32,000 bases of DNA, from NCBI RefSeq assembly GCF_004365815.1, contig NZ_SODD01000014.1, forward strand, positions 1 to 32,000. Reading direction: 5' to 3'. Under the pieces are notes generated by a model, which worked only from the letters and a program-made list of their open reading frames with translations, was not told the origin of the DNA and did no database searches. The position numbers were made by a program, and so were the translations under genes. Shown here one piece after another: positions 28,981 through 32,000 of the stretch. How positions within the stretch are numbered: position 1 is the stretch's first letter; the number at the start of each line of letters is the position of its first letter. The stretch is from Breznakia blatticola (GTDB lineage: Bacteria > Bacillota_I > Bacilli_A > Erysipelotrichales > Erysipelotrichaceae).

Positions 28981-29925
28981 TTAGTCTACTTGTTGTATTG
29001 ATAATTTAAAATCGAAATTCACAAATAAGTGATAATCATTATTTGCATAGTTTCCATCTTGTGTAGCTGCCTTTGGTTTTACAAACCCTTTTGTTGCATC
29101 ATGCATAACATAGACAGACGTATTATTTGTCTCATACTCTTGCATCAGTTGTTGTAAGATTCGATCTTTCTTACATGCATCACACAACGTAGCACTTCCA
29201 TCTTGTACATCAATTGTATTTAGATTTGTACCATCTATACAGTTATCCCACTTCCATGTAAGCGTTTGGTTTTTAAGTCCGTATAGTTTTCCTAAATCTT
29301 CACCAGGTGTAAATGTAGTATCAATAAGTGCTTTATCCATACGCTCTTTGATTGTGCCTAATGAATTTTGTGTACTTAGTGCACTGTCAAATGTTTGAAT
29401 ACCTTCCCCTTTTAAAGTAAAGATAACTGGCCAATATCCATTAGTCTCTGTGACTTGTACTGCATTTTCTAACATATAGTATGTTTTTGCACTATCATAT
29501 GGACCTTCATCTAAGGTACATGCATCGTTTTCACAAACATAGTAGGTTTGTGGTACATATGTGTATTGCATAAAATCTACAGGTTTCATCATTGCCCAAA
29601 ACCCATTTCCTAAGAATATATTTTGTTGGTTCAATTCATATGTCAATTCACCATCTACTTCTGGTTTTCCATCAATTGATATATGAAGTCCATCATCATT
29701 ACTTTCTCCTGGTAAGACAATATTTCTACCAAGCGTGTCTTTTGTTGTAAATAATTTACCTTCAGCTGTAGCTACAGTTCCCCATAATGCAACACGCGCA
29801 GAGTTTTGATTTTCTTCTTGTGTCACATACCGACCAAGTACCCCACTTGTTATGGGTAATACAATTAATGAGGCAAGTAGTATAATTGCCACTAGTTTTT
29901 TTGCATGTTTATGTATCCAATTCAC
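28981..29925 (-). CDS. Divergent TasA/camelysin-like secreted protein (SipW-type signal peptide candidate)
   Basis: GTG start with a GAGAGG SD. N-terminus KKLVAIILLASLIVLPITSGVLGRYVTQ. Shares YWPVIF, TWKW and C-terminal FDFKLSIQQVD motifs with the paralogue at 31468-32000. Lies directly downstream of sipW. Confidence 0.7.
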   Translation of the reverse strand: MNWIHKHAKKLVAIILLASLIVLPITSGVLGRYVTQEENQNSARVALWGTVATAEGKLFTTKDTLGRNIVLPGESNDDGLHISIDGKPEVDGELTYELNQQNIFLGNGFWAMMKPVDFMQYTYVPQTYYVCENDACTLDEGPYDSAKTYYMLENAVQVTETNGYWPVIFTLKGEGIQTFDSALSTQNSLGTIKERMDKALIDTTFTPGEDLGKLYGLKNQTLTWKWDNCIDGTNLNTIDVQDGSATLCDACKKDRILQQLMQEYETNNTSVYVMHDATKGFVKPKAATQDGNYANNDYHLFVNFDFKLSIQQVD

Positions 29926-30502
29926 TGCTTACCTCTCTTTCCGCTTTCGCTTGCTTTAATCTTTCTATTTCTAAACGGACCGTTTCAAGATCCTCTTGTT
30001 TGATTTGCTTTTCTTTTGCATATGACATTTCTAATAATAGAAATGCTAACAACAATACGCTTATGGTTCCAAGTGGATGTTTCATCACATTGATAATCGC
30101 TCCAACAAAAGGAATACTACAAATGACTTTCCCTTTGATGTTTTCCTTTGTGATTGGATCATCAACCATTCCATTTGCATCACCTTTGGTGTAAATATTA
30201 TCTTCATCTATACTTACAACACGATGAACGATAAGTTCATACCCATCTTGATACACCACAATATCATCAATAGATACATTTGTTGTATCTTTCACGATAA
30301 TAAGATCATCTTTTTCTAATGCAGGTTGCATACTTCCCGATAACACAACGGATGCACCATAACCAAATGGAGTTGGTAGTGCATTACCTACGATGGACTG
30401 TGCATTATATAAATACACAGTAAATCCAATATAGATTCCAACAATGATAAGAATTGGTGTACGCAAAATGCGTGATTTTCTACTCTTCATCATGTTCTCC
30501 AT
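29909..30502 (-). CDS. sipW: SipW-like (ER/archaeal-type) signal peptidase I
   Basis: Motifs SGSMQP, HRV and GDAN, with N- and C-terminal TM helices. The true start may be ATG 30493 or 30490 (GGAGA SD). Has a charged C-terminal tail of about 40 aa. Confidence 0.9.
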   Translation of the reverse strand: MENMMKSRKSRILRTPILIIVGIYIGFTVYLYNAQSIVGNALPTPFGYGASVVLSGSMQPALEKDDLIIVKDTTNVSIDDIVVYQDGYELIVHRVVSIDEDNIYTKGDANGMVDDPITKENIKGKVICSIPFVGAIINVMKHPLGTISVLLLAFLLLEMSYAKEKQIKQEDLETVRLEIERLKQAKAEREVSSELDT

Positions 30503-31364
30503 CTTTCTTCTTTTTCCAAATTATGCATGCTACAAGTACAACAGCAATTCCACCTAACATAAGATAATACATTACATTTGTTGTATCTCCGGTGTTTGGA
30601 TTACGTAGTCCACCATCCGCAATTTGTGAATTTTCATCACTCCATGCATAGGTACGAATCACGACAGTTACAGTTAAGTCTTCATCGACTGCACGATTGC
30701 CTAAATAGGTATCAAAGTCATCATCACCTTGTTCAAATGGCCATTCCCAAAACAATGTGTAATACGCATAGTTTTTAGCATACAGACTAGCTTCATCACG
30801 AATAAAACTGCCCTTTGCTAGACGCTCCATTCCTTGATCACTACCTAAAAGATAGTCACCAGTATAACTTTTCATCGCAATGTTTACAGGGAAATCAACA
30901 TCACTTGGACTTGTTAGTACTTCACAGGTCATTTGATATTTTACAGTAGTTGATCCATTATTTTTGATATGAAAGGTGTACTCATTTTCTGTTCCTGGAG
31001 CGATTACTTCTTCTCCATTTGAACTTACTACGCTTACTTTTCCATCATCATTTGTATATGTAAGCTTAAAAATTTCAACATCTGTTTCTGTTGACCAAGT
31101 TTGTTTATTATCAAAGGTTTCAATCCCCTCTGTATTTTGTTGTGTTCCTACCCCATTGGCATTGTTTGTAATTGCAATAGATGAACTACCGCCTTCATCG
31201 TTTGTTTCATCAGATTCCACTGCAACTGATGGAAACAATGAAATTGCTTCTTTTTCAATCTGTGATATGTAAATAAGATGATTTCCTATCACACTTACTG
31301 TAATTGCAACACAGATGAAAAGCACACATACCAATAGCCAAATCTTTCCTTTTCTATTTTGCAT
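30480..31364 (-). CDS. TasA-like domain protein with N-terminal TM/signal anchor and C-terminal NPNTG sorting-signal-like tail
   Basis: AGGAG SD. IAPGTENEYTFHIKNNGSTTVKY and DTYLGN...LTVTVVIRT parallel TasA motifs. The C-terminus is LRNPNTGDTTNV + MYYLMLGGIAVVLVACIIW + KKKKDGEHDEE. Confidence 0.8.
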   Translation of the reverse strand: MQNRKGKIWLLVCVLFICVAITVSVIGNHLIYISQIEKEAISLFPSVAVESDETNDEGGSSSIAITNNANGVGTQQNTEGIETFDNKQTWSTETDVEIFKLTYTNDDGKVSVVSSNGEEVIAPGTENEYTFHIKNNGSTTVKYQMTCEVLTSPSDVDFPVNIAMKSYTGDYLLGSDQGMERLAKGSFIRDEASLYAKNYAYYTLFWEWPFEQGDDDFDTYLGNRAVDEDLTVTVVIRTYAWSDENSQIADGGLRNPNTGDTTNVMYYLMLGGIAVVLVACIIWKKKKDGEHDEE

Positions 31365-31420
31365 AGTTCTCCTTTTAAAGAAGCAACAAACAATCTGTCA
31401 ATTGTTTGCTATTTCTTTAA

Positions 31421-31452
31421 ATATAGCCCTTAGCGCATACCAAGGGCTATAT
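31421..31452 (-). terminator. Strong hairpin (11-bp stem) after the partial TasA-like gene
   Basis: ATATAGCCCTT-10 nt-AAGGGCTATAT. The T-run is short (ATATTTAAAG), so termination efficiency is uncertain. Confidence 0.45.
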
Positions 31453-31467
31453 AACATAAACTATAAA

Positions 31468-32000
31468 CTAGTCTCTTTGAGTTATAGTAAGGTTTAAATT
31501 AAACATCACTTTAAATGATGATGGACCAAATGGTTTCCCTAAATATGCACCGTCTAATCCTTTTTCTTTCATAAACTCACCTTGCATCCCATTAAATCCT
31601 GTTGAAGCAAAGCAATTTACATCAAAATCAGTATCTCCTCTATTTGCTGCCATTACATTTCCAATCATGGTATCTACTTTATCGTATTTTCCGTTTGTAG
31701 TTGAATCGTCATGTGTAAATGCCCACTCCCATGTGATTTTAGGCAATGCAGCTTGGCTTAGGTCAGTACCTGATTCAAAATTTACACCTGAAGTCTTATA
31801 AACAGCGTTAAACTTATTTGCAATCAGTTCTAGCGTATCTTGTTGGTATGCACTCGCCCCTGTAGGGTTTGTAAATCCATTCCAATCTGTTCCATCTTGG
31901 TTCGTCATTTTAAATGTAATCGGATAATAGTCTGGACCTGCGTTTCCATCTGATTTTTCCAAGTTTGCAATTTCTACAGCTTCATAAAAAACATCACCAT
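31468..32000 (-). CDS. TasA/camelysin-like paralogue, 5'-truncated by the window edge
   Basis: The frame stays open to position 32000 (..GDVFYEAVEIANLEKSDG..), so the TTG 'start' in the ORF track is internal. Motifs YYPITF, KITWEWAF, DTMIGN and C-terminal FNLNLTITQRD. Confidence 0.75.
   Translation of the reverse strand, partial: GDVFYEAVEIANLEKSDGNAGPDYYPITFKMTNQDGTDWNGFTNPTGASAYQQDTLELIANKFNAVYKTSGVNFESGTDLSQAALPKITWEWAFTHDDSTTNGKYDKVDTMIGNVMAANRGDTDFDVNCFASTGFNGMQGEFMKEKGLDGAYLGKPFGPSSFKVMFNLNLTITQRD

Follow-up and report, generated by a model that had tools for sequence, protein, structure and literature searches.

A conserved five-gene cassette with two SipW-type signal peptidases in Breznakia blatticola and gut Clostridia, a candidate surface-fibre locus

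Genes and hairpins of the operon

The genomic stretch of Breznakia blatticola analysed here (contig NZ_SODD01000014.1, positions 1 to 32,000; hereafter the window) ends in a cluster of genes for a SipW-type signal peptidase and its putative secreted substrates, which are considered below as components of a candidate surface fibre. All genes of the cluster lie on the minus strand and, in order of transcription, they are an open frame designated F1, X, sipW2 and F2. The window holds the C-terminal 176 codons of F1 (31468..32000), a putative major fibre subunit; the frame is not closed up to base 31998 (31468-31998) and the gene runs off the window. X (30480..31364) encodes a paralogue of F1 and F2 of 294 amino acids (aa), a putative cell-wall-anchored subunit recognised by a match to TIGR01167, by hhalign and by its AlphaFold2 (AF2) model. 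The sipW2 gene (29909..30502) encodes a 197-aa signal peptidase I of the archaeal/endoplasmic reticulum (ER) type that matches TIGR02228, and F2 (28981..29925) encodes the 314-aa second paralogue of the F family, a putative minor, adaptor or tip subunit recognised by BLASTP, hhalign and alignment of orthologues. X overlaps sipW2 by 23 nucleotides (nt; 30480-30502) and sipW2 overlaps F2 by 17 nt (29909-29925), as given in the original prediction, which a model had made without database searches.

That prediction also held that the locus continues past the window edge, and both the rest of F1 and a second SipW gene were found upstream, by an exact protein match to a 60.8-kb contig of Breznakia assembly GCA_029893755.1 (the extended locus is designated L001). 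The 164-aa open reading frame (ORF; 31468-31962) is incomplete as a gene: it belongs to the C-terminal 176 codons of an F1 protein of 361 aa (L001 8812-9897). F1 is preceded in Breznakia by sipW1 (215 aa, L001 8067-8714), which has a promoter-like site with 11/12 consensus matches upstream. The whole operon has five genes, in the order sipW1, F1, X, sipW2 and F2, and the window contains its downstream two-thirds.

The identification of the central ORF as a SipW-type peptidase is borne out by the motifs LSGSMQP, VHRVV and KGDANG of the 197-aa product and by its score of 72.9 bits against TIGR02228, the model of archaeal/ER-type signal peptidase I (cut-off 51.85 bits), on which SipW1 scores 112.7 bits. 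Both enzymes fall below the cut-off of 190 bits of the Bacillus SipW equivalog model (SipW2, 67 bits; SipW1, 98 bits), and thus are relatives of the SipW type rather than SipW orthologues. The catalytic set of SipW2 is Ser-His-Asp (SGSMQP, HRV and GDAN..D), and Ser66, His108 and Asp133 are conserved in 100% of S1 (n=64) and S2 (n=50) orthologues, so that the Ser/His dyad, loss of which would have spoken against a peptidase, is intact together with the Asp. SipW1 and SipW2 form separate orthologous groups. Because each group has its own conserved signature and indels, the two peptidases are maintained as separate enzymes, both presumably active. Both have the two hydrophobic segments of the SipW topology (residues 11-35 and 139-162 in SipW2) and, after the second transmembrane (TM) segment, a cytoplasmic C-terminal pattern L..E(L/I)..L common to both classes. 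A regulatory role has been reported for the tail of B. subtilis SipW; the L..E(L/I)..L tail could have a similar role or could serve to pair the two peptidases. The predicted substrates carry two classes of signal, A(K/R)Y in F1 and F2 versus SR(L/I) in X. No match to DUF5305 was found among the proteins of the window and the extended locus with Pfam and NCBIfam.

The hairpins reported between the paralogues are real. The F1-X intergenic region (31365..31467, minus strand) folds into two tandem strong hairpins with a minimum free energy (MFE) of -39.2 kcal/mol (z -7.3), and none of 200 shuffled sequences folds as well; they are followed immediately by the ribosome-binding site of X. In 54 of 66 related loci the sequence after the F1 stop codon is structured to a similar degree (z < -3, calculated from mononucleotide shuffles). 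The F1-X gap has a median of 158 nt and the X-sipW2 gap a median of -4 nt, with X, sipW2 and F2 tightly packed. The F1-X hairpins are a putative attenuator, or a putative element stabilising the mRNA after the gene of a major subunit. A strong hairpin after one gene is the usual mark of a stoichiometric major subunit, and F1 is read as the major subunit, made in excess, because conserved hairpins follow this first structural gene. Directly after the F2 stop codon there is a terminator-like hairpin with a U-rich 3' side (28950..28981, minus strand), which has an 11-bp stem in the MFE fold as well as in the centroid fold and was not called a terminator by a simple consensus scan; it is probably the end of the operon.

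The F1, F2 and X proteins and the spread of the cassette

The three ORFs flanking sipW2 had been proposed to be divergent paralogues, and profile comparison confirms this. BLASTP between the paralogues as contained in the window is marginal (E 0.004 and 0.03), and full-length F1 matches F2 with E 1e-15. With signal peptides trimmed, and alignments drawn from 80 related loci, hhalign relates F1 to F2 (99.0% probability, E 3e-18) and F1 to X (99.1% probability, E 6e-19, over 150 columns); when 56 homologues are used per family, the F profile matches the X profile with 97.7% probability. The short motifs on which the proposal was based are present: W(K/E)W in all three (LTWKW, LFWEW and ITWEW), DTx(L/I)GN in two (DTYLGN and DTMIGN), YYP or YWP in two and a terminal ...IQQVD or ...ITQRD in two. 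APGT.N, W.W, D..DT.GN and the final strand ...Q(V/I)D are invariant columns of the F and X families. All three proteins are acidic (pI 4.0-4.6), and none matches a Pfam or NCBIfam family, the sole exception being the C-terminus of X, which matches the LPXTG anchor model.

F1 consists of a signal/TM segment, SGTFA|KYTT...ARVAKWGV, APGT.N, GTPEVDG, YYP, W.W, D..DT.GN and the end ...TQRD, and F2 similarly has SGVLG|RYVT...ARVALWG near its N-terminus and ends in ...IQQVD. Of the roughly 46 positions that are invariant or nearly so in the F family, 15 fall within residues 35-56, right after the hydrophobic segment. A type IV pilin-like N-terminus was considered and rejected, the conserved motif lying after the hydrophobic segment and not before it. 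The AF2 model of F1 is confident (predicted local distance difference test, pLDDT, 84; predicted template modelling score 0.77); residues 34-47 are its sole internal disordered stretch in the monomer (pLDDT <50), and ARVAKWGV forms edge strands. No consistent N-E-K isopeptide triad like that of BsaA could be placed from the conservation lists of the F and X families.

In X, an N-terminal TM segment is followed by an acidic, disordered linker (residues 50-85) and then by the jelly-roll core (residues 89-241) and a sortase signal. The jelly-roll fold expected of the AF2 monomers was obtained for the beta core of X (pLDDT 76.7), but the F1 model, confident as it is, has no neighbour in the PDB (best Foldseek E 0.37) and none in BFVD. 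X had been called anchor-like by comparison with TapA. An anchor is indeed indicated, but in the form of a sortase sorting signal and not in the manner of TapA: X scores 17.6 bits against TIGR01167 (cut-off 15.9) and ends in NPNTGD, a TM segment (261-286) and KKKK. P.TGD is the commonest sorting motif of the X family (36 of 65 members), and the 183 homologues of X include some named LPXTG proteins. F1 and F2 have no sorting signal and end in ...Q(V/I)D.

Both of the extra cysteine pairs that had been noticed, CENDAC and CDAC, are in the 314-aa F2, but CENDAC is not conserved. In an alignment that includes orthologues from Breznakia PF5-3 and Aequitasia, CxxC and the Cys of W.W.NC are conserved solely in the Breznakia/Aequitasia subclade of F2, where the acidic W.W...D..DT.LGN patch is replaced by W.W.NC ... 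CD.CK.D.ILQ (window 29170-29260, residues ~224-251; orthologues at L005 10647-11627 and L006 10399-11310). It is unusual to find three conserved cysteines in a protein that an anaerobe places outside the cell.

The F family has no Pfam or NCBIfam model. A word-seeded search returned 1686 homologues of F1, none of which has a Pfam domain or an informative name, and an exhaustive profile search of 1.84 billion representatives clustered at 50% identity returned 5181 at E <= 1e-3, including 1316 at E <= 1e-30. The species-representative genomes contain 438 stretches that code for relatives; nearly all belong to Clostridia of the gut or rumen (Oscillospiraceae, Lachnospiraceae, Ruminococcus, Acutalibacteraceae, Christensenellaceae) or to Erysipelotrichaceae. 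A few are from cultured strains, and the carriers in culture include Breznakia, Aequitasia blattaphilus PAL113, Hominibacterium faecale SF3 and Clostridium sp. AM22-11AC.

When ORFs called in 80 related loci were searched with hidden Markov models (HMMs) for F, X and SipW, the colinear order SipW1 (~231 aa), F1, X, SipW2 (~190 aa), F2 was found complete in 47 of 81 loci, which represent different species of Clostridia and Erysipelotrichia of gut and rumen, and in most of the incomplete ones the cassette is cut by contig ends. Thus, the unit is not a copy of the three-gene tapA-sipW-tasA operon, as had been suggested, but a conserved cassette of five genes with a second SipW gene. The operon is often extended to nine or more genes. 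A giant protein (at least 700 aa, usually 1400-1850 aa) is encoded after the cassette on the same strand in 36 of 46 evaluable loci; these proteins have Flg_new/Listeria-Bacteroides repeats and a SpaA-like end, without a sorting signal. The giant gene is preceded by genes for small proteins whose signal peptides are of the same kind (groups c0s and c2) and followed by one for a ~200-aa protein (group c1); TIGR04090, the BsaA model, is matched by 11 members of this set (best E 5e-11), as would fit the c1 group. Some loci add a gene for a LytTR response regulator and an adjacent gene for a ~420-aa membrane protein. Many of the giant proteins share a recurring C-terminal ...W.WR...WLNGNS... pattern (L008 11670-16580, L017 11456-16645, L025 4204-9291, L079 5034-9920 and similar), a domain that might dock the adhesin onto a fibre.

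In Breznakia the genes immediately before sipW1, on its strand, encode two giant surface proteins (>1137 aa and 1362 aa, L001 1-7713). They contain LRR_5, VWA, SHIRT and Flg_new domains, and the second has an IETGD-type sorting signal at its C-terminus, similar to that of X. They may be the cargo or the partners of a Breznakia fibre.

A candidate surface fibre and its alternatives

The operon probably, if only just, encodes a heteropolymeric surface fibre that is processed by SipW-type peptidases, anchored by sortase and assembled through N-terminal donor strands, with F1 as the major subunit. A fibre processed by SipW is proposed because the conservation of the F family sits in the N-terminal segment that follows the hydrophobic segment; a short, exposed and extremely conserved N-terminal segment that a dedicated signal peptidase sets free is what distinguishes donor-strand subunits (TasA, BsaA, AbpX). 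Also in favour are the fixed order of the cassette, the catalytic residues kept in both peptidases, the homology of the three mature domains, the TasA-like form of the cleavage motif, the sorting signal and jelly-roll core of X, the acidic composition, the hairpins after F1, the BsaA-like and giant adhesin partners in other species and the published operons of comparable fibres. A class B sortase gene is adjacent to the cassette in 7 of 80 related loci (TIGR03064, 158.8 bits, cut-off 153.75). F1, F2 and X would be acidic secreted proteins sharing one jelly-roll-type core, exported by means of N-terminal signal/TM segments that the two dedicated peptidases would remove. Cleavage of F1 and F2 is likely to occur after the conserved G-T/L-F/Y-A, leaving (K/R)-Y as the new N-terminus and freeing the highly conserved (K/R)YT...D.ARVAKWGV, which would act as a donor strand by inserting itself into an adjacent subunit. 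By analogy with AbpX-type fibres, the invariant Tyr40 of the F family would be the aromatic residue at position 2 of that strand. F1 would polymerise into the fibre through its donor strand, X would be fixed to peptidoglycan by a sortase acting on the P.TGD signal and would tether the fibre to the cell, and F2 would be a minor subunit (cap, adaptor or tip). The polarity of the fibre, like the reason for having two peptidases, we infer with no more firmness than these roles. In most species genes for additional small subunits, the giant repeat adhesin and the BsaA-like protein come further along the operon, in place of which Breznakia has the giant LRR/Flg_new genes upstream. The broader proposal of the original prediction, that the locus specifies an uncharacterised multi-subunit extracellular system, is probably right.

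Several observations weigh against such a fibre. PDB profile searches, hhalign and Foldseek found none of the donor-strand fibre subunits of solved structure to be similar to these proteins in sequence or fold. X does not have the ARVAKWG segment of F1 and F2 and carries, after its TM segment, a short conserved hydrophobic motif of its own. A scan for ORFs of the TLxTC type found no sortase gene in the 32-kb window. The link to the BsaA-like c1 proteins stands at 28% once signal peptides are trimmed, the earlier c1 and c2 matches having been largely signal-peptide similarity, and the downstream adhesin and c1 genes seen elsewhere are missing from the Breznakia locus. The shuffles behind the z values of the 66 hairpin loci preserve mononucleotide composition.

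It is unlikely, but deserves serious consideration, that F1, F2 and X are instead non-polymeric jelly-roll proteins (lectin-like or resembling carbohydrate-binding modules, CBMs), displayed or secreted as binding or coat proteins that share SipW export. The best PDB neighbours of the X model are generic jelly rolls (Foldseek E ~1e-4) with ligand-binding functions, namely the Eph ligand-binding domain, CBM, MAM and the receptor-binding domain of phage gpJ; the dissimilarity to solved fibre subunits and the adhesin-like character of the giant neighbours also agree with this explanation. It leaves unexplained, however, why conservation in F1 and F2 peaks just after the cleavage site, why three paralogues and two peptidases are kept in a fixed order across families, and why a strong hairpin follows F1 only.

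That F1, F2 and X are bona fide, very divergent members of a TasA/CalY/BsaA lineage, the locus being an elaborated tapA-sipW-tasA, is improbable. This explanation, which is that of the original prediction, draws on the SipW gene in the operon, the TasA-like cleavage-site motif, the last strand ending in a conserved Gln, the jelly-roll fold and the occurrence of BsaA-family proteins in the same operon elsewhere. By eye, GTFA|KY of F1 has the same form as GGTWA|AF of TasA, with Thr at -3, Ala at -1 and an aromatic residue at +2. However, neither HMM nor structural similarity to TasA was found with the methods used. Peptidase_M73 (PF12389), TIGR04088 and TIGR04090 had no match at E <= 1 to the 314-, 294-, 176- and 361-aa proteins and none at E <= 0.1 among 56 members of the F family, and a sequence search of the PDB with both family profiles gave nothing relevant. 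In hhalign comparisons of F1, F2 and X with TasA alone (the query is 100% identical to 8AUR), the probability is <=7% untrimmed and <=1.1% trimmed. The same limits apply with a TasA/CalY-like profile, which is shallow (11 sequences, median identity 81%) and includes ten TasA-family genes of Bacillus plasmid origin, added because TasA used as a metagenome query gave only near-identical copies. The parallels to TasA drawn in the original prediction (PGD...F.F.NNG and the final strand) coincide with the best local hhalign placement, which always falls on the LKPGD...F.F.NNG strand of TasA, but with 1-3% probability these alignments are not significant. TasA is also absent among the 50 Foldseek matches listed for the X model. 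A chain of homology from F2 through c0s and c1 to BsaA, good with full-length sequences, was rejected when trimming of the signals cut c0s-c1 to 28% and F-c2 to 10%. A functional analogy to tapA-sipW-tasA is nevertheless reasonable.

A spore-associated or camelysin-like protease function is highly improbable: TasA was originally called a spore coat-associated protein, and CalY a metalloprotease, and this historical link of SipW substrates to spores and the name Peptidase_M73 are all that suggest it, whereas the window proteins have no protease motif or protease HMM match in Pfam or NCBIfam, the sortase anchor and adhesin neighbours point to the vegetative cell surface, and the operon lies among housekeeping genes (pth, mfd, dnaB, gdpP).

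The proposed fibre system can be compared with four known ones. Like tapA-sipW-tasA of B. subtilis (PDB 8AUR/5OF1), the cassette has a dedicated SipW-type peptidase inside the operon, acidic beta-rich secreted substrates, a G-T-aromatic-A | x-aromatic cleavage region and an anchoring or nucleating paralogue beside the fibre gene. Unlike it, the cassette has five genes, two SipW genes instead of one, proteins with no sequence, profile or Foldseek similarity to TasA detected, and as its putative anchor a sortase substrate paralogous to the fibre protein rather than a TapA-like protein. The sipW-bsaA-bsaB-bsaC operon of Clostridium perfringens (TIGR04090; PMC7395162, PMC11580942) likewise combines SipW with paralogous matrix proteins and a large adhesin-like partner, and BsaA-family c1 proteins end the homologous operon in many sister loci; the window proteins, in contrast, do not match TIGR04090, and their link to c1 is weak (28%) after signal trimming. 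BsaA oligomers are reported to be membrane-anchored, versus the wall anchoring predicted here. Relatives of BsaA and TasA occur in operons with LPXTG proteins, minor subunits or paralogues, a signal peptidase and a sortase (PMC11580942).

The AbpX-like loci of Bacillota (bioRxiv 10.64898/2026.01.04.697558) have an LPXTG-anchored subunit predicted to join the polymer and histidine-kinase regulators alongside the fibre genes, and their donor strands reportedly conserve an aromatic residue at position 2. Counted here as likenesses are a predicted donor-strand fibre, minor subunits, an LPXTG-anchored subunit, a sortase, histidine-kinase regulators, acidic subunits and the position-2 aromatic. In contrast, the AbpX-associated peptidase has ten TM helices and both cassette peptidases have two hydrophobic segments; there are two peptidases in the cassette, and neither family profile finds a related PDB chain. 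SpaA-type sortase-assembled pili resemble the proposed system in having a wall-anchored basal subunit with a sorting signal, major and minor subunits and an adhesin partner, but here sorting signals are absent from F1 and F2, a class C pilus sortase is lacking, and the conserved enzymes are signal peptidases rather than sortases.

No paper on the F/X family or on the twin-peptidase cassette was found in a literature search. By analogy with SipW-dependent fibres, the cassette would follow the same logic, and what appears to be new is an unannotated subunit family, a fixed five-gene core and the pair of peptidases. A bolder and doubtful version of the fibre hypothesis is that F1, F2 and X constitute an independent, undescribed class of Gram-positive surface fibre, common across Clostridia and Erysipelotrichia of gut and rumen, not derived from TasA, matured by two non-redundant SipW-type peptidases, anchored by sortase through a paralogue and equipped with a giant adhesin. 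The peptidases of such a class might work as a heterodimer joined by their L..E(L/I)..L tails, or there might be one for each class of substrate, A(K/R)Y or SR(L/I).

TasA-type fibres, known chiefly from work on Bacillus, C. perfringens and archaea, shape biofilms and cell-cell contact; to our knowledge, almost nothing is known of the surface appendages of the dominant gut and rumen Clostridia (Oscillospiraceae, Lachnospiraceae, Ruminococcus). If the fibre is real, the cassette would be a major candidate for a role in how gut anaerobes adhere and aggregate. It would also allow the need for two dedicated signal peptidases to be examined in a defined system, and it would offer structural biology a new subunit fold. 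It is directly testable because cultured carriers exist.

Other genes in the window

GC skew is negative across the window (1-32000), and all ORFs of at least 120 aa except one are on the minus strand. The window thus fits a housekeeping region of the leading strand (mfd, pth, dnaB, gdpP) in which the candidate fibre operon is embedded. Downstream of F2, within 28081-28821 (minus strand), there is a gene for a polytopic membrane protein, which is 246 aa long in two other Breznakia assemblies. The window has a run of four T residues at 28736-28739 where those assemblies have five, resulting in a 1-nt frameshift with an ORF restart at 28725 (214 aa); this could represent a pseudogene, a homopolymer sequencing error or phase variation. 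The protein was ruled out as a component of the system, being restricted to Breznakia loci. A chloramphenicol-acetyltransferase-like gene (PF00302; 27282-27917, minus strand) lies between the operon and pth-mfd.

Further along the window, an IS605-family TnpB with HTH_OrfB_IS605, OrfB_IS605 and Cas12f1-like TNB domains (7723-8850, minus strand) is located beside a 133-aa ORF (8862-9263, minus strand) that may be TnpA, the pair being situated among glycogen-metabolism and housekeeping genes. A 417-aa protein (13428-14681, minus strand) has Schlafen AlbA_2 and HATPase_c_4 domains, an architecture often associated with defence or with DNA-binding regulators.

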